A stretch of 62,658 bases of DNA, the filler included, from Circinaria calcarea (taxonomy: Eukaryota), in NCBI GenBank assembly GCA_051942165.1. It is 16 parts of 16 records of this genome, joined end to end, with 100 filler letters (N's around TTAATTAATTAA, not from the genome) between each part and the next. Parts side by side here need not be neighbours in the genome. Positions count along the whole stretch, not along the records: positions 1 to 3,835 come from JAVECS010002597.1; 15 more parts are not named here. The stretch is one strand, 5' to 3'. Numbering within the stretch: position 1 is the stretch's first letter; each line of letters starts with the position of its first letter. The notes below the pieces were generated by a model. That model was not told the DNA's origin. It did not search any database and saw nothing but the letters and a program-made list of their open reading frames with translations. The position numbers were made by a program, and so were the translations under genes. Positions 1-48,707 of the stretch are shown in pieces.

Positions 1-1
1 A

Positions 2-808
2 GAACTGGCCAACATGATAGTTTCTTTGGTTGAAAACGGAGTTGATCTAATATGTCTTGGTCTAACTTGCCAGTTTTTCTGGGCGTTGCTCCGTAACCGT
101 GTCAAAGAAATCCTCGTCGAAGATATGGCACCATGGGCTGGTAGCCGCTTGATCTTGCTTGCAGACTACGCCGACGACCTCCCCACTTCTCTGCTCACAC
201 CTAGCGTTCGACAAGTCCTAGATGAAGCTACACAAGAAAAGCTCGACCGGGCCAGGCAAGAACGCTTCGGGCTCGAAGACTTTTGCCAGGGAACTCTGAA
301 CGATGTATCGTGGAGGTGGCCGGATGCTGAACGCCATCAAGTCTTGGACTCCGCTTCCAGTAGGCTTCGCGCGTCCGAAAAGCAACTACTCTCTAAGTTG
401 TTCGCGAATCCGTATCCCGAAGACCAAGCTTGGGTTCTCAGAAACATCTCCAAAAGGGAATACGTAACTGCTCAAGCGATGAACGAACTGTCTGGTGTTA
501 CCTCCACTGCGCTCGTCGAGAACACGGTTGGCTTCGGCGAGGTTATCCTTTCTCGTATTCAGTGGACGTCGGATCCCTCTGGCACGGTCGACGGGTGCAA
601 GGGCGAATGGGCCGGAGACCGATTCGACATCACCACGCTTGATAGGATAAGTCTTGGACTAACCCTGCACGAGCAAAATGATGGAGGAGAATGGAGAGAT
701 GTCAGCAAGGACGCCGCTGCAAAGGTCGGTCTGATTTGGTCCGGCAAAATTATGATGGCGAGGAGGGAAAACGGGGTTGGGTCTGACGATGAGGATGGAT
801 TTGTTTGA
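2..808 (+). CDS. Hypothetical fungal protein with an F-box-like N-terminal remnant, 5'-truncated
   Basis: The frame is open from the contig start: ELANMIVSLVENGVDLICLGLTCQFF resembles the end of an F-box motif. The C-terminal blocks WVLRNISKREYV and GEWAGDRFDI look like conserved fungal hypothetical-protein motifs. Stop at 808. Confidence 0.55.
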   Translation, partial: ELANMIVSLVENGVDLICLGLTCQFFWALLRNRVKEILVEDMAPWAGSRLILLADYADDLPTSLLTPSVRQVLDEATQEKLDRARQERFGLEDFCQGTLNDVSWRWPDAERHQVLDSASSRLRASEKQLLSKLFANPYPEDQAWVLRNISKREYVTAQAMNELSGVTSTALVENTVGFGEVILSRIQWTSDPSGTVDGCKGEWAGDRFDITTLDRISLGLTLHEQNDGGEWRDVSKDAAAKVGLIWSGKIMMARRENGVGSDDEDGFV

Positions 809-1900
809 CAAGAAGACCATCGATGACACCAATCGAGGCAGGATACCACCTATCTTTGACAAAGTCATACTCTATTCTGGATTTCTTTTCCTCTGCCTCA
901 CTCACTACAGAAAACTCGATTAGTTATCAGTACTTCATCAAACTCTAATGGCAACATGATTTCTCTCGTCCAACAGCCTAAATGCCCCAATTGTAATCCA
1001 GATCTCTACACCATCTCGTTCCTTCCCATGCCTCCTCCTAGTCCTGGTGGATGGTCTCCCGTTTAGTGCACACAGCCCATCACTCAGATCGGGATAAGTA
1101 CCAACCCATAGCTTCTCCTCTGGGAGGAACGCATACGTATATAGGGAAGCCTCCTGTCCAGGGAAGTTCTCGTCTCACGTGCCCTTGTCTAGTCGATAGA
1201 AACATTGCTATTTATGTGTCAATGGAGATACAGTCTCGAAAGGTGTAGGTGGTCCAAGGAACGGGTAGATAAGGATTGGTTTCTGACAAACTGGGAACCA
1301 CTCCCCCTCTGTGCCTTGATGGGTTAAAACTTCTTCTTGGCTAATACCGAGGTACTTCGACTTCATTCTTGGGGATATGCGTGTTTCAAATCCTAAATTC
1401 CACTGGAAGCCTATGACGTGGCTCCTCTGAATTGGAAAACCGATGCCAAGTTTTTGGCCTGCGCGCTAAACTAAAATTCTCCGTTCGTAATTCGCCGGGC
1501 CAACGCCCATCACTATTTACGGAGTACAAGAAATTCTTCCCCTCCCGGCCATCCGAAATCTGTCCCAGCCATTCTCTCGCTCGTCCAGCCTCCAAAAAGT
1601 ATCTGATAGCAACGTTGGAAGTAGGGAAGATCTGAGTAATATTGATGCAGGGAAGATAATAAATCTAGGGGCTCATCGCTAAGTCAATCATCCAAGCTCT
1701 CTCTCTCTGCATCTCATCCCCGTTTCTCTTTGACAAACTCTATTCCCCGCTTGCCTGTTTCTCATACAAAGCAGCTGTCTCATCTTCCATAACCTACTGT
1801 TCAGAAGCTATCATTGTTTCATAGGTACTCTTTTTCCGACCGAGAGAATATTCGAGGCCGTCTACAGGCTCTCCGTCCAACCCGGTCCACGAAAACTGTC

Positions 1901-3522
1901 ATGCGGCCTACCGTGCTCGCTACATGGTTGATCGTCTCCGCGACCACTTTTGTACCTTCGATAGCTCAGACATCCACTAAATGCAATCCTTTACAAGGTG
2001 AGACCATTGAGCATTCCATTGCGCCCTTTAGGAGCCATACTGATGCTAAAGTAGGTACCTGTCCTGCTGATCCTGCCTTGGGAAAATCTACGACCGTCGA
2101 CTTCACCCAAGGCATACCTTCCGACTTTACAGCAAATGGTGGACCTACATTCGATTCCAATGGCGCTTCCTTCTCGGTAGCGCAGCCAGGGGATGCCCCT
2201 ACGCTAACATCGAACTGGTACATCATGTTTGGACATGTCGAGATTGTACTGAAAGCAGCGCCTGGTGCCGGCATCGTTAGTACCCTGGTACTTCAGTCAG
2301 ACGATCTTGATGAGATAGACTACGAGTGGCTCGGAGGAGACAACACCCAAGTGCAAAGTAACTATTTCAGCAAAGGTCAAACGACAACCTACAACCGAGG
2401 AGCTTTCCATCCAAACGCTGGCAATCACGATGGCTTTCACAAATATACCATAGACTGGACCGCCGAAGAAGTTGTGTGGCAAATTGATGGGGTGACGGTA
2501 CGAGCCTTGACGCAAGCAGCCACAGGGGCACAAGGATATCCGCAAACACCAATGCAAGTCAAGATCGGTGCTTGGAGTGGAGGCGATCCTTCTAATGCGC
2601 CTGGTACGATCGGTAAGAATTTCAGTTGACAAACAGTCCGTCGAATCTCCGACTAAATCTTTTTCGACAGCATGGGCGGGTGGTCCGACGAATTATGGAT
2701 CCGGTCCTTATACCATGCAAGTCAAATCTGTTGCCGTCACTGACTACTCGACTGGATCACAATACACCTATGGAGATACGACTGGTAGCTGGCAGAGTAT
2801 CAAGTCTGCCGGGGGTTCTGTCAATTCTGGCGGAAATGGTTCACCAGCCGCTATCGCTCCAGCTCCAGCAGTGACTGCAGTGTCAAACGGGGCACCACTG
2901 CCATTTGAAGGTACTCATCGCGACACCAGTTCGACCTACGTCAGACCTAGTGGATGGCCTTGGGTTGCAAATCCTACGACTTTGTCAACCTTGACGTCGA
3001 CGGCAACAACGATCCCAGGTTTACCAAGTGGCTGGACTCTCACTGCGTCCGGTAAAGTCGTACCGCCAAGTGCGGCGCCTGTGAGTGAGCCATCCCCTAT
3101 CTCAATATTTTGCGTTTTGAAGCAAGTGATGCTGATCTGTCTTATTCAAGTCGACATCCCCTCCCGCCTCATCTACCTTGTCTGCAGTAGCCTTGCCGCC
3201 GGCTTCTGGTTTGGCAGCGGAAGGTGGCTCTGAAACAGTAATAAGATACAACCAGCAGGGTTTTCCCACTACCGTCATCGAACCTGCTGGGCGGGCTACA
3301 GCGTCCAAGAGCTACGACGGGCAAGGTTTCCTGATCACGCCCGGACCGGCAGGACCATCTTCGACAGCCGGCGTCGGCGTCGGTCAGAAAGCGGCAAACT
3401 CGGCTCAACCGTCCACTGTCAATGTCTTGAAAACCACCGTGACCGGGGCTGCTAGCCCAAGAGGCGTGTTTGGAGAGGTGCTTGGTATATGTGCATTTCT
3501 GGCTGCATTGGTCTTGTATTAG
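1901..3522 (+). CDS. crh1: GH16 CRH-family chitin/glucan transglycosylase, secreted and GPI-anchored
   Basis: Signal peptide MRPTVLATWLIVSATT, CNPL..TCPADPALG, YIMFGHVE, catalytic DLDEIDYEWLG, YPQTPMQVKIGAW. Introns at 1998-2054, 2613-2670 and 3081(or 3085)-3150. A Ser/Thr-rich stalk ends in the hydrophobic tail GVFGEVLGICAFLAALVLY*. Confidence 0.9.
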
Positions 3523-3835
3523 CGAAGCGCGCATTCAGGGTGTTTGAGCGATTGGGGGGGAGGCATAGCATTAGGGAAGGCGCAAACTGAGGGTTTTGGA
3601 TACCAAGACCATGGAGACAACCAGGTCGATGAATATACGAGCGGACACACACATGTATAGATTGTCCAATGTTGATAGATAACTGACAGATCAAATGCCC
3701 TTTTTTGGAAACAGATGATGAGCCGAACCGACTACCGTACCAAAACTTTCCTAAGAAACTTACTAGAGACTTTGAGATTAACAGGTAGCAGACCAAGCTC
3801 CCGATTTATAGTCTTTTTTCATTTATGTTTCCCAA

Positions 3836-3935
3836 NNNNNNNNNNNNNNNNNNNNNNNNNNNNNNNNNNNNNNNNNNNNTTAATTAATTAANNNNNNNNN
3901 NNNNNNNNNNNNNNNNNNNNNNNNNNNNNNNNNNN
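3836..3935. other. Artificial contig-joining spacer (first of 15)
   Basis: 44 N + TTAATTAATTAA + 44 N, giving stops in all six frames. Identical spacers start at 3836, 7768, 11699, 15630, 19561, 23490, 27416, 31341, 35264, 39181, 43096, 47010, 50923, 54836 and 58748. Confidence 0.99.
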
Positions 3936-4402
3936 TGCAGCACCGGCGAGCGACTGAAGGAGACGCAGAACATCAACAAGAGCCTGAGCTGCCTCGGGGA
4001 CGTTATCGGAGCTTTGGGCCAGGGCAAGGAAGGCGGGCATGTACCTTACCGCAACAGCAAGGTAGGTTAACTGCCGTAGGATGTGACGAGGCTTTCATGT
4101 TGCAGCATGGTGGAAAAACCATACAGCAGACTGACGTTTCCTATAGTTGACGCACTTGCTGCAATTCTCGCTTGGTGGCAACTCGAAGACACTCATGTTT
4201 GTCATGATAAGTCCGCTGCAAGCACATCTCAGCGAGACATTAACAAGCTTGAAATTTGCCGATAAGGTCCGTTAAATTTTCCCCTCTGATTACTTGCTTT
4301 ACTAACCGACTGTCCAAGGTGTGGAAGACCCACATTGGCATTGCCTCAAAGCGTGTAGCGTTGGGGCAAAAGGACGGGAATGCTCGTCAACACCACCAGT
4401 AG
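3936..4402 (+). CDS. klpA: Kinesin-14 (KlpA/Kar3-type) C-terminal motor domain, 3' fragment
   Basis: Manual splicing gives [40 protein letters not shown] | intron 4062-4146 | [40 protein letters not shown] | intron 4267-4318 | VWKTHIG...HHQ*. The motor sits at the C-terminus. The ORF track misses this gene. Confidence 0.85.
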
Positions 4403-13171: not shown

Positions 13172-13514
13172 TGTAAGGGCGCTGCAATCCTTGGGGCTTA
13201 TTGAGGAATATGATAAGTCCCGATTAGTAATAACACGGTTACATAGGCCGTAGTCGAATGGTTGGCCTAGGCTCAATATAAAAGAAGTATATTGAACTTG
13301 TTATGGGTCTATAAGCATGCTATCTAAAGAGCGGCGATAGCCTGTTATATATATTCTCCTGCTCACCCTGCTCACCTCCATGAGTATACTGAGCAACCTT
13401 CCGTGCTCACCTTACTCACCTCCATGAGCATACTGAGCAACCGGTTCCAGGGTTCTGCCGTTCCGGGACTAGTCCTATCTCGGTCCTCGTACATGTCATG
13501 GTGGCGCCATAACA
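13172..13514 (-). mobile_element. Solo LTR, family A copy 1 (343 bp; strand given relative to the copies at 38417 and 38736)
   Basis: TGTAAGGGCGCTGCAATCCTTGGGGC...GGCGCCATAACA has TG..CA termini. Its reverse complement aligns with 38417-38727 and 38736-39169. There is no clean TSD (CAGAG vs CTCGA). Confidence 0.8.
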
Positions 13515-19660: not shown

Positions 19661-21147
19661 GCCTCCACTTGCCTCATGGCCGTGGACGGGCTTCTTTTCG
19701 TAATAGCCAGATTTCCAAAATCTATCCAAAATGTCGTTCTCGTTCGTCGCGACCACCAACTTTGCCATAGGCAGGCCCATGCGCTTTGCAAAGTACCTAA
19801 GCAATGTTAGAGTTCTTCATTACTGAGAACGTGTCAAAGAAAACCCGTACCCAGCTAGAACGTCGCCGAAGTTTCCAGTAGGTACCACGAATCGTACTTG
19901 GGAGCCGGAAGTGAATTTTCCAGATTTTGATAGCAATGCATATGCATGGAAATAGTATGTAATCTGGGCCAAGATGCCTATATTCATGTCAGTCTTGGGC
20001 GGTACACAGCAGAGCTCAGATGGCGGTGAAGCCTTCGCGAGCTGACTCCGGGGAGACCTTACGGGCCCAGTTGATCGAGTTTATAGCGGCAAGCTGGTGC
20101 GTTCTCTTGATGTCGTCATCACCAAACAGAGCTTTTACAAAGTCCTGGCAATCATCAAAGGTGCCATCGACCGCCAGGTTGTGCACGTTCTCGTCCAGCA
20201 CCGAGGTCATCTGGGCCTCTTGAATTGGGCTGATCCGATTTTCCGGATGGAGGATAATAACTGATACATCAGCTTTCCCTCGTAAGCCATAGATTGCCGC
20301 AGATCCAGTGTCGCCGCTTGTTGCTCCAACTACCGTTAGGTGCTCCCGCCCTGCTTCGCTCTTGCCTTTATTTCGTCGGACCAGAAAATATCTGTACTTG
20401 GAGTTAGTCTGTTGCATATGTAAAGATTAAAAATGGGCTCTTTGGTACACTAACTCGAAGACGTTCCCGAGAAACTGTAGGGCTACCTTTACCCGGGGTT
20501 AATCTACTGTAAACAAAAGAGATGGATGGATGATTGAGATTTACGTCTTTGAAGGCAAAAGTAGGACCTGTAGCGGTAAATTTAGTTGATCCTATAATAA
20601 AAATGTCTAGGTCAAATGGTCGTTCTTACTCACCGTGAAAAAGTTCAAGCAGGTGCAACTGTTTCTCTTCGTCCAATGTCACTAATGGCGTGGTCTCCGG
20701 CGCACGAAAGACGGATGAAGAATAGCTTCTGTGGACAATGTCCCGGAGATCCTCTGACGGGATCTCACTAGAACTGACGTATAGGGAGAAGATGTGGAAC
20801 GCCAGCTCCTCGAACGACCTATGATAATATCAGGATCACTGTATATCATATTGCTACACCTAAGAAGCGGATTGACTGACCAGTCTTTCCATACATCTGA
20901 CCACTCGGCCGGCAGTGACGGAATCTCTTCTGGAAGAAAGAGGCCGCCTTCAATTAAGTGAGTAAATGGCCAACGTCAAGTTGCTGTGGACCGGAGCTTA
21001 CCGTCGGGAGCAAGACCTTGAAGGACTACTTCTTCAAAGGAGCGCTATCCAACGTGAGTAGATGGTCGAGTTGCGGAAGCTTAAACATACATTGTAGGAG
21101 CCGCCTCGACTGCTCAGATATTTTTGGGAGGATGTATAGGATGCCAT
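19661..21147 (-). CDS. THR4: Threonine synthase, 3'-truncated, 8 introns visible
   Basis: MASYTSSQKYLSSRGG, VLQGLAPDGGLFLPE, LLELFHGPTFAFKDVALQFLGN (PLP lysine), GATSGDTGSAA, INSINWARILAQITYY, VPTGNFGD, VATNENDIL. Confidence 0.97.
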
Positions 21148-47109: not shown

Positions 47110-48707
47110 CCCATCCAAAAATCGCCCAGTTTCATTCCCCATGAAAAAGTCTTGGCGAGTAAAGGTCCACCTACGAATATGCCACAATATGTCATTGTCG
47201 CTATGCCGGTGTACAAGGTACCAAGGTGTTTCTGCTCGACCAAGCTCGTAACAAGACTTCTTGCTGTGACCACGAAGGCGAAGCCAAGCGCAAACAGGAC
47301 TTGGCCTGAGATAATTGTAATTGGAGTTGATGCAAGAAACGTCGTGGTGCAGCCTAGGACAAGAAACATGGCACTAATCTGTGTGAGTCGCTTGTCCTTG
47401 ACAGCGATATCCATTTGGAGTTTTTTCTCGAACAGATACGAAAGCCCCGGAATCAAGGCACCAAGGACGAGCAGACTTACGCCGGACCGAAGGGGGATAA
47501 GATACGCTGCCTTCGCATAAGTCCAATGAAATTTCTTCGAAGCGTATTGAAGAAGTACACTGACGACTTGTTTACCCAGCCCAGCGACAAAGAAAGACGA
47601 TACAATCAGTAAGACAGGGACGTTGCGTTTCATCCAGCAAAAAGAGTTGCCAAGTTGGCCTAGCTGCTTTTGCATGCCATCGTGAGACGTGATAGAGTCG
47701 CCTTGAATATTTACTGGAAGAAGACTATCAGTCTCGACGGATGGCTCATCTGGCCGCTCTTCTTCCTTCCTTTTGAAGGTTTCGGGGATGAGGATGACCG
47801 TAAGTAAGCCCCCAGAGAACATGAGAACAGAAGCACCGAGATAGGGAATCCATGGGTTCATAAGCATCAGAGGTTCGCAGATAGGAATGGCCATGAACTC
47901 TGATAGGAGGAAAGCGGCATTGATCTGTGAAAACGCCGTAGTCCTACCACTATGTAAGTCCTTGTAATGCTAGCAGTAAAGCAATAGATAGTTATATGCC
48001 TTTTCTCAGCAGGACACAAATCAGCAACCATAACGAATAATATCGAGGTCATTGTAGTCGCGCCTCCTCCAAGCAACTGCCAAAGCCCTCCAAGCCATAC
48101 CGCGCGAATAGGAAAGGTATTGGGGAACCAGTCTACATCAACCTGTCAGCACTCACATTCTGCTCCTGAGGCTGTACAAACAGCGGTAGAATCGGGCATA
48201 ATCTCACGTACAAACCAATCGAGTCCAAGCATCGCTTAGGAAGCAGCCTAGAATGGATAGAACTAAGACTTTCTTACGCCCAATATGGTCGGCAACATGA
48301 CCATAAGGGATTGCACATAAGATTCCTTAGGTTACAGAACAATTAGCATATAGTGAGCTGAACAGGAGTAATAACAAGGTTCCACCTGGGATGGTATCCA
48401 GAGCGTCCTTCCAGCCTAAAATAATTGCTACCTCACTCTGAACGGGCTCGATCTTACATTTGTCGGGTTGAAGCTTGCCATCGAATATACCCAAGGAGGC
48501 ATAATACTTGCCGCAAACGATGTGTTCCAGAATCGCCGTCTCAGGGGCCATGGAGATATAGTTGGAGGTGTCTAAGATGAGCATAACAGCGCTAAGAGCC
48601 AGAATCGTCCAAAAGTGGCCATTCCAGGTCGAGTTTGCATCCTCGGATTTGCCAGTATTATCTCTAACCATGTTTGGTGGTGGATCTGGTGGCAGTGGAT
48701 TGGACAT
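47110..48707 (-). CDS. MFS transporter/efflux pump of the type found in secondary-metabolite clusters, 3'-truncated
   Basis: CKIEPVQSEVA, AIPYGHVADHIGRKKVL, IPET, LLQYASKKFHWT, RSLVTSLV...GTLYT. Three introns. Confidence 0.9.

Follow-up and report, generated by a model that had tools for sequence, protein, structure and literature searches.

We analysed a window of 62,658 nucleotides (nt) from Circinaria calcarea (GenBank assembly GCA_051942165.1), meaning by this the whole stretch of DNA under study, which consists of 16 parts of 16 records joined end to end with filler between them. The first part (positions 1 to 3,835, record JAVECS010002597.1) carries a Crh-type GH16 gene on the + strand, with four exons and its ATG at 1901. 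Exon 3 of this gene ends at a codon boundary (...GCG CCT at 3080) and is followed by GTGAGTGAGC at 3081-3090, where two GT dinucleotides stand 4 nt apart and both are donor-like (GTGAGT at 3081 and GTGAGC at 3085). The intron that they open has a branch-like CTGAT at 3132-3136 and the acceptor AG at 3149-3150. Depending on which GT is used, exon 4 is read in one of two frames, and the protein receives one of two C-terminal tails. The features of the gene are given below; the RNA contigs mentioned there come from a relative of the source fungus, in four runs, and are described with the RNA evidence.

1901..1997, + strand: exon 1, with the start codon and the hydrophobic, signal-peptide-like N-terminus; the RNA contigs skip 1998-2054 in 4/4 runs
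1998..2054, + strand: intron 1, 57 nt, GT..AG; joint in the RNA contigs of 4/4 runs (1995>2053, cut +2)
2055..2612, + strand: exon 2, with the GH16 catalytic domain including DEIDYE (Pfam PF00722)
2613..2670, + strand: intron 2, 58 nt, GT..AG; joints of 58-60 nt here in 4/4 RNA runs
2671..3080, + strand: exon 3, a 136-residue extension ending GLPSGWT..SGKVVPPSAAP, with 38 invariant columns among 12 sequences
3081..3089, + strand: tandem donor GTGAGTGAG, with the GT of donor 1 at 3081 and the GT of donor 2 at 3085
3081..3150, + strand: last intron, 70 nt from donor 1 and 66 nt from donor 2
From 3151, + strand: exon 4, with the long-frame reading at 3151-3522
3151..3233, + strand: dual-coding stretch, with the long frame from 3151 (S/T/P/A linker) and short-frame codons from 3153, TGA at 3231-3233; in the short frame, a spacer and a hydrophobic tail
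3234..3522, + strand: coding in the long isoform only, with the motifs YNQQGF and SYDGQGFLIT, a second linker and a hydrophobic C-terminus, stop at 3520-3522

Two products from two donors

Translation of the model spliced at the first donor (3081) gives a protein of 478 amino acids (aa) with a hydrophobic tail and the stop codon at 3520-3522. Splicing at the second donor (3085) keeps GTGA in the message and shifts the frame, and the resulting protein of 383 aa, with its stop at 3231-3233, is 95 aa shorter than the first. Full retention of the last intron is stop-free and leads to the same short tail in a protein of 405 aa. Small residues precede the hydrophobic stretch in both spliced isoforms, and the best 12-residue Kyte-Doolittle hydropathy is 1.91 for the short one and 2.88 for the long one. 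An initial annotation of this DNA had proposed the two donors, the acceptor at 3150, the stops at 3522 and 3233, both peptides and a stop-free retention of the intron into the short tail, and all of these coordinates and their arithmetic hold.

Identity of the enzyme

Exon 2 matches Pfam PF00722 (GH16) with an E-value of 3.7e-44 and 150.7 bits, against a cut-off of 22. The catalytic motif of Crh-type GH16 enzymes is E-x-D-x-x-E / DEIDxE, and the translation of exon 2 contains it as DDLDEIDYEWLG, while the hydrophobic N-terminus MRPTVLATWLIVSATTFVPSIAQ is signal-peptide-like by translation. The nearest database proteins are Crh-like proteins of lichen-forming Lecanoromycetes, with Varicellaria rhodocarpa at 82% identity over the domain and Xylographa, Lambiella and Trapelia following at 75-78%, and the best matches carry the names Crh-like protein or transglycosylase. 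By these resemblances the predicted product of the gene is a Crh-type GH16 chitin-glucan transglycosylase.

Short and long tails in the protein models of other fungi

We examined 120 listed homologues for the residues that follow the conserved ..SGKVVPPS(A/S)A.., and both tails were found among them. The long form, with an S/T linker and Y(D/N)QQGF motifs, is given by many NCBI models, among them those of Varicellaria, Xylographa, Lambiella, Trapelia, Glonium, Lepidopterella, Clohesyomyces, Paecilomyces variotii and others. The tail that the window encodes in its alternative frame is the annotated C-terminus in Lasallia pustulata, Venturia nashicola, V. inaequalis and Tothia fuscella, and the same short C-terminus is annotated in the black aspergilli A. 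niger, A. ellipticus, A. heteromorphus and A. sclerotioniger. The named species that carry either annotated form span the Lecanoromycetes, Dothideomycetes and Eurotiomycetes. The choice between a short and a long model varies within one class, with Lasallia short and Varicellaria long (proteins P0001-P0120). In unspliced metagenome gene calls the residues past the end of the exon read V-S-(E/K), which equals GTGAGT(G/A)AG, and several of these calls continue through the intron into a short-type tail.

Profiles built from the annotated tails recover both readings of the window. A profile of 17 long tails matches the long-only region 3234..3522 at E 1.9e-29, and a profile of 11 short C-termini from other fungi (window excluded) matches the alternative frame at E 1.9e-10, with the runner-up among 2486 six-frame pieces at E 0.051. 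The public models of this orthologue group are either short (~365-385 aa) or long (~440-500 aa), and the two sizes are interleaved among related species, a disagreement that probably reflects two isoforms rather than true differences between genes.

The long-only region (3234-3519, alignment A2) shows two conserved motifs, (V/I)T.YDQQGF.T and SKSYD.QGFLIT, that resemble YD/RHS repeats. An identification of these motifs as RHS/YD repeats was rejected, with the Pfam model RHS_repeat reaching at best 18.1 bits (E 0.0037) against a cut-off of 22. Matches to RHS_repeat at E up to 1 are present in 4 of 23 long tails, below the Pfam cut-off, and we call the motifs YD-like.

Tandem donor and both tails in related loci

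The exon-3 peptide alignment (A1) retrieved 80 metagenome loci, and 48 remained after removal of 21 without GLPSGW and 11 exact duplicates. In 33 of these 48 loci, the motif G[TG]NAGT[AG][AC]G stands in frame at the codon boundary after PPS... The motif reads GTGAGTAAG in 12 loci, GTCAGTAAG in another 12 and GTGAGTGAG, as in the window, in 5, and the variants GTAAGTAAG, GTTAGTAAG, GTGAGTACG and GGCAGTAAG are found in one locus each. Its third base may be G, C, A or T; this variability is expected, because use of donor 2 makes the base the wobble position of a Val codon. Of the 34 motif-bearing sequences (window included), 33 have RAG at intron positions +7 to +9, as would be expected if the second GT were a working donor.

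For all 31 loci with the acceptor in the contig, donor 2 leads to a tail of 23-27 aa (28 aa in the window) that follows the pattern V-I/T/N-D/N-I/V-P-S/T-R-F/L, continues with a hydrophobic run and has a W near its end. For the same 31/31 loci, donor 1 leads to a tail of 74-148 aa with YDQQGF-type motifs, and 28 of the 29 complete long tails (window included) have a hydrophobic end. The initial annotation had called for an alignment of orthologous loci as a test of whether the tandem donor and both frames are conserved. The donor is kept in 33 of the 48 loci, and both frames encode peptides with hydrophobic ends in the 31 loci that include an acceptor, with the exception of the long end of locus L031.

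The 15 loci without the motif comprise 3 that are cut by the contig end, 6 that are intronless, 4 with other intron starts and 2 that resemble complementary DNA (cDNA). In the intronless loci (L010, L011, L030, L053, L057 and L070) a short hydrophobic tail follows directly after PPN/PPS.., and the long frame was not detected in any of the six; these loci may be paralogues, or may come from lineages that have settled on the short form. Locus L033 reads GGCAGTAAG at 2897-2905, where the first GT is gone and only the second donor is left, and its contig stops before the acceptor. The acceptor region of locus L040 (1820-1840) reads ..TCTAGCAG and then TCAAC, with two AGs 3 nt apart, which compared with L036 and L037 amounts to a NAGNAG-type tandem acceptor next to the tandem donor.

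Dual coding compared with chance

Two properties of the site were rejected as evidence. The first is the rarity of the motif: GTRAGTRAG is not significantly enriched in the window (5 copies vs 1.63 expected, with 3 of 100 shuffles reaching 5), and its count is near chance. The four further copies lie at 897-905 (-), 13411-13419 (-), 20625-20633 (-) and 47800-47808 (+). The second is the hydrophobicity of the alternative frame taken by itself. Each short-frame codon combines the last base of one long-frame codon with the first two bases of the next, and long-frame Ser codons of the TCN type become NTC (F/L/I/V) in the offset frame almost automatically. Because the motif is near chance and the hydrophobicity partly automatic, the case rests on RNA and conservation.

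We shuffled the coding sequence synonymously, keeping the long peptide and redrawing the codons from the gene's own usage, and scored the short frame of each shuffle with the profile. The short frame of the window scores 42.7 bits, and the shuffles have a mean of -3.3 and a maximum of 22.9, so that 0/5000 reach the observed value. When the test was applied to 32 sequences, the observed score was reached by 0/1000 shuffles in 23 of them and by no more than 9/1000 in 29. The short-frame stop falls at 23-28 codons in 32/32 sequences, a position at which 8-36% of the shuffles place it. The choice of Ser codons differs between the overlap and the rest of the gene: in the window the overlap has 7/7 TCN and no AGY, compared with 29 TCN : 12 AGY elsewhere, and in the pooled sequences it has 248 TCN : 3 AGY, compared with 640 : 296 outside (odds ratio 38). 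Read in the short frame, an AGY codon would become TAG, Q, K or E. By long-frame codon position, site diversity amounts to 0.31/0.42/0.51 in the overlap; exon 3 has 0.30/0.21/0.60, and the region downstream 0.48/0.42/0.65. The long frame is open across the overlap in 32/32 sequences, and its conserved motifs follow.

What exceeds chance here is the specific alternative-frame sequence together with its conservation. Both frames seem to be conserved as peptides beyond what either imposes on the other, the reciprocal test being weak. The suggestion that 3151-3233 could be dual-coding agrees with these results, as two frames are open in this stretch and the short one is conserved beyond what the long one imposes.

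The same tests bear on a simpler explanation, in which donor 2 represents splicing noise, or splicing coupled to mRNA decay, and the short frame looks protein-like only by way of the Ser-rich long frame. The genetic code lends itself to this through the change from TCN to NTC, the motif alone is not rare in the window, and passages of PMC2423196 predict premature stops for the majority of the 4-nt tandem donors that lie in human coding sequence. However, shuffles that keep the long peptide never reach the short-frame score in the window or in 23/32 sequences, AGY codons are nearly absent from the overlap (3/251), the position of the stop is constant to a degree that few shuffles share, and RAG at +7 to +9 is almost invariant. 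In addition, other fungi annotate the short tail as their only C-terminus and intronless relatives encode it directly. We regard this explanation as already largely refuted and very improbable.

RNA evidence for both junctions

The RNA evidence consists of Logan contigs, rather than reads, from four metatranscriptome runs of one study (X1-X4). The run search found no run that contained at least half of the sampled words of the stretch, and these four had only a low share of them. The contigs were placed at a likeness of at least 90% (range 90-99%, mostly 90-95%) and come from a relative.

The joint 3084>3151, which corresponds to donor 2, was found in X1, X2 and X3, and record 9 of X2 spans it with 155 nt, 108 and 47 letters on either side. 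The joint 3080>3151, which corresponds to donor 1, was found in X1 and X3 with a shorter side of 29 letters, and in X4 it is present only as a loose end of 17 letters before 3151. The summed contig depths for the two joints (~11.3 vs 18.9) are a poor measure of their use. In X1 a contig of 1410 nt stops exactly at 3080 and is followed by pieces of 60 and 64 nt that differ by the four bases, an arrangement typical of an assembly bubble inside a single transcript family. These RNA contigs give no evident sign of intron retention, with a depth of 0.06-0.74 in the bin 3090-3151, compared with 3.5-18 in the preceding bin in three runs; the fourth, X4, lacks cover at that place.

Each donor is also seen in use in a further species, because the two cDNA-like contigs among the metagenome loci lack one form of the intron each. 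Contig L027 equals L026 at 99.5-100% identity minus exactly the 64-nt donor-1 intron, and contig L038 matches L042 at 92-96% minus the 58-nt donor-2 intron and a second intron. In the species of L027 and L026, the donor 1 in use reads GTCAGT. Both donors are used in the RNA of relatives, and the two junctions that the initial annotation had proposed to compare (3080^3151 and 3084^3151) are both present in the metatranscriptome contigs of a close relative.

It could be argued that the two junctions stem from two organisms in the sample, each with one constitutive donor, and that no single fungus switches between them. The contigs derive from metatranscriptomes, most pieces have a likeness of 90-95% to the window, the flanks are short, and L027 and L038 show one junction each in different species. 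Set against this are the X1 contig and its two pieces, which show the pattern of a bubble within one transcript family, and the retention of both frames and both GTs at every genomic locus examined, for which there would be no need with one donor per species. We give very little credence to a mixture of two organisms.

Surroundings of the gene in the window

The contig of the Crh gene ends ~313 nt past the stop codon. At 3836-3935 two N runs flank TTAATTAATTAA (3880-3891), a linker with stops in all frames. With this N-linker the window looks like an artificial join of separately assembled contigs, and nothing beyond 3835 is a true neighbour of the gene. Past the linker, a kinesin motor domain (PF00225) is encoded in two exon pieces on the + strand, at 3936-4067 (E 5.1e-13) and 4147-4272 (E 2.8e-13), which match profile positions 245-325 of 327, and the kinesin gene is cut on its 5' side by the linker. 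An open frame of 268 aa at 2-805 (+ strand) runs off the start of the window, and for this frame there is no Pfam match at E up to 0.01.

A probable switch between two anchor-type ends

The locus has two donors and two open frames, these are conserved in many distant fungi, and both junctions occur in the RNA of relatives. We consider it likely, and hold with good confidence, that this tandem donor is an old and conserved switch, productive with either donor, that gives the enzyme one of two anchor-type C-termini. The interpretation that the initial annotation gave of the site is supported, and its functional idea, a change of stalk length or of anchoring mode, may hold. In the mechanism that we propose, the last intron carries a 4-nt tandem 5' splice site, GUGAGUGAG, and the donor register would be chosen at splicing. 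With the first GU (3081), exon 3 would be joined to 3151 and the protein would gain a 123-aa extension made of an S/T/P linker, two YD-like motifs, a second linker and a hydrophobic end. With the second GU (3085), GUGA would stay in the mRNA, the frame would shift, and the same 83 nt (3151-3233) would encode a 28-aa spacer and hydrophobic tail. A putative signal peptide, the catalytic domain and the 136-aa region of exon 3 would be shared by both products.

By general rules for such signals, each tail may be a signal for attachment of glycosylphosphatidylinositol (GPI). The short form would take the conserved PPS-A-A, at the end of exon 3, as its omega site, followed by ~8 spacer and ~16 hydrophobic residues, and the mature short protein would be essentially the shared part. 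In the long form this omega site would become part of the linker, two YD-like motifs and a second signal would be added, and the omega site may lie near ..TGAAS.., close to the far end. The choice of splice site would then set the length of the stalk, and the presence of the YD-like module, between the enzyme and its anchor. Work in yeast has given rise to the idea that stalk length and signal context decide between residence in the membrane and in the wall, and they could do so here. We infer from the predicted tails that both forms are GPI-anchored and that their placement differs, one being membrane-near and the other deeper in the wall.

The short tail admits another interpretation, in which both isoforms are made and this tail is not a GPI signal. 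It would instead be a C-terminal membrane anchor, a signal for retention in the endoplasmic reticulum or for degradation, or the end of a secreted or otherwise handled form, and the switch would then operate between anchor types, or between an anchored and a non-anchored enzyme. In the window the short tail has an Arg three residues from its end and a low terminal hydropathy, and the spacer motif V-I/T-D/N-I/V-P-S/T-R-F/L is more conserved than is usual for GPI spacers. Against this, the order of S-A-A, ~8 spacer residues and ~16 hydrophobic residues fits the rules for GPI signals, the total length is constant (23-28 aa in 32/32 sequences), and the tail is the sole C-terminus in orthologues annotated with the short tail alone. 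Crh proteins are also described as GPI proteins in passages of PMC2721682 and PMC6443627. We judge a non-GPI role of the short tail to be unlikely.

A number of observations weigh against the switch between two anchor-type ends, or limit what can be drawn from the data in its favour. With regard to the tails, the long tail of L031 is without a hydrophobic end, and the short tail of the window ends ..GSGRWL, with its Arg in the terminal residues, an average Kyte-Doolittle hydropathy of only 0.46 over the last 15 residues, and its best 12-residue stretch (1.91) placed 9 residues from the end. With regard to the RNA, it stems from a relative, present in the environmental metatranscriptomes of one study, and not from the source fungus. 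Joints with a likeness below 95% or a side of fewer than 30 letters can stem from other organisms, and only the donor-2 joint has at least 31 letters on both sides. The 11 tails of the short profile were picked by a six-residue pattern modelled on the tail of the window, which inflates the score somewhat, and some of them may share organisms with some of the loci. In the shuffle test the short-frame scores of L001, L016 and L055 lie inside the shuffle range (37, 87 and 151 of 1000). The loci are phylogenetically related, and pooled counts and the Fisher P-value overstate their independence. The site diversity of the overlap is flatter than that of its flanks, which is consistent with a double constraint, and the effect is modest. 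In the reciprocal test, with the short peptide kept instead, the median share of shuffles with an open long frame is 50%, which makes this test weak and uninformative.

We put forward only tentatively a wider form of the proposed switch, in which it would be a regulated device of great age, already present before Lecanoromycetes, Dothideomycetes and Eurotiomycetes diverged. The U1 register on GUNAGURAG would divide the enzyme between a short-stalk, membrane-near pool and a long-stalk pool with the YD-like module that reaches into the wall, and an 80-nt exon segment would be kept dual-coding for it.

As a rule, tandem donors 4 nt apart are put down to splicing noise or seen as a way of sending mRNA into decay. 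In this gene, the tandem donor and a dual-coding exon segment appear to have been retained together in three ascomycete classes, and to give a wall enzyme two anchor-type ends. If this is true, the gene would be a clear fungal case of functional frame-shifting alternative splicing, and it would explain the conflicting database annotations of the orthologue group. It would also make testable how stalk length and the context of the GPI signal decide between a stay in the membrane and entry into the wall. For gene-prediction pipelines it would serve as a warning, in that one model per locus loses a conserved isoform.

Comparison with known systems

The predicted protein resembles the Crh/Crf family (S. 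cerevisiae Crh1 and Utr2/Crh2; A. fumigatus Crh1-5) in its GH16 domain, its DEIDYE motif and its hydrophobic N-terminus, as well as in a Ser/Thr-rich C-terminal region and a hydrophobic C-terminus. Two alternative C-termini read from one exon in two frames are not described for this family in the literature passages searched.

Similar to the gene studied here, A. fumigatus CRF1 belongs to this enzyme family and has more than one reported transcript, and the initial annotation had drawn a parallel with its splice variants. This parallel fails, and Crf1/Crf2 was rejected as a precedent. According to passages of PMC2721682, Crf2 consists of residues 1-327 of Crf1 joined to 390-395, an in-frame internal loss of 328-389 for which the authors found no splice sites, and the passages of PMC2721682 and PMC6443627 contain no mention of a 4-nt donor shift. 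Among the CRF1 transcripts Crf1, Crf2 and Asp f 9, a predicted GPI anchor is stated in these passages for Crf1 only. The closest A. fumigatus match to the gene of the window (P0106, 68% identity) has ..GGLIAIF at its end and differs there from the Crf2 epitope, which implies ..AVLAF; it is probably another paralogue.

The arrangement of the splice site has its counterpart in mammals, where 4-nt tandem 5' splice sites (Delta-4 alternative 5' exons) are a known class in human and mouse (passages of PMC2423196). As in the fungal gene, the GTs of the mammalian sites lie 4 nt apart within an extended U1-complementary sequence, both registers are used, and the downstream frame shifts. Most of the mammalian coding cases, however, are predicted in the same passages to yield premature stops and targets of nonsense-mediated mRNA decay, whereas in the fungal gene both frames appear as conserved peptides in three classes and end in anchor-like tails.

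Our literature searches, with most subscription journals outside their coverage, returned no paper that describes this tandem-donor switch of C-termini. In INK4a/ARF and GNAS XL-alpha-s/ALEX, two cases of mammalian dual coding, one DNA stretch is read in two frames and gives two functional products. These mammalian genes reach their two frames through alternative first exons or start codons, whereas in the fungal gene a donor shift of 4 nt would leave the enzyme the same and give it different ends.

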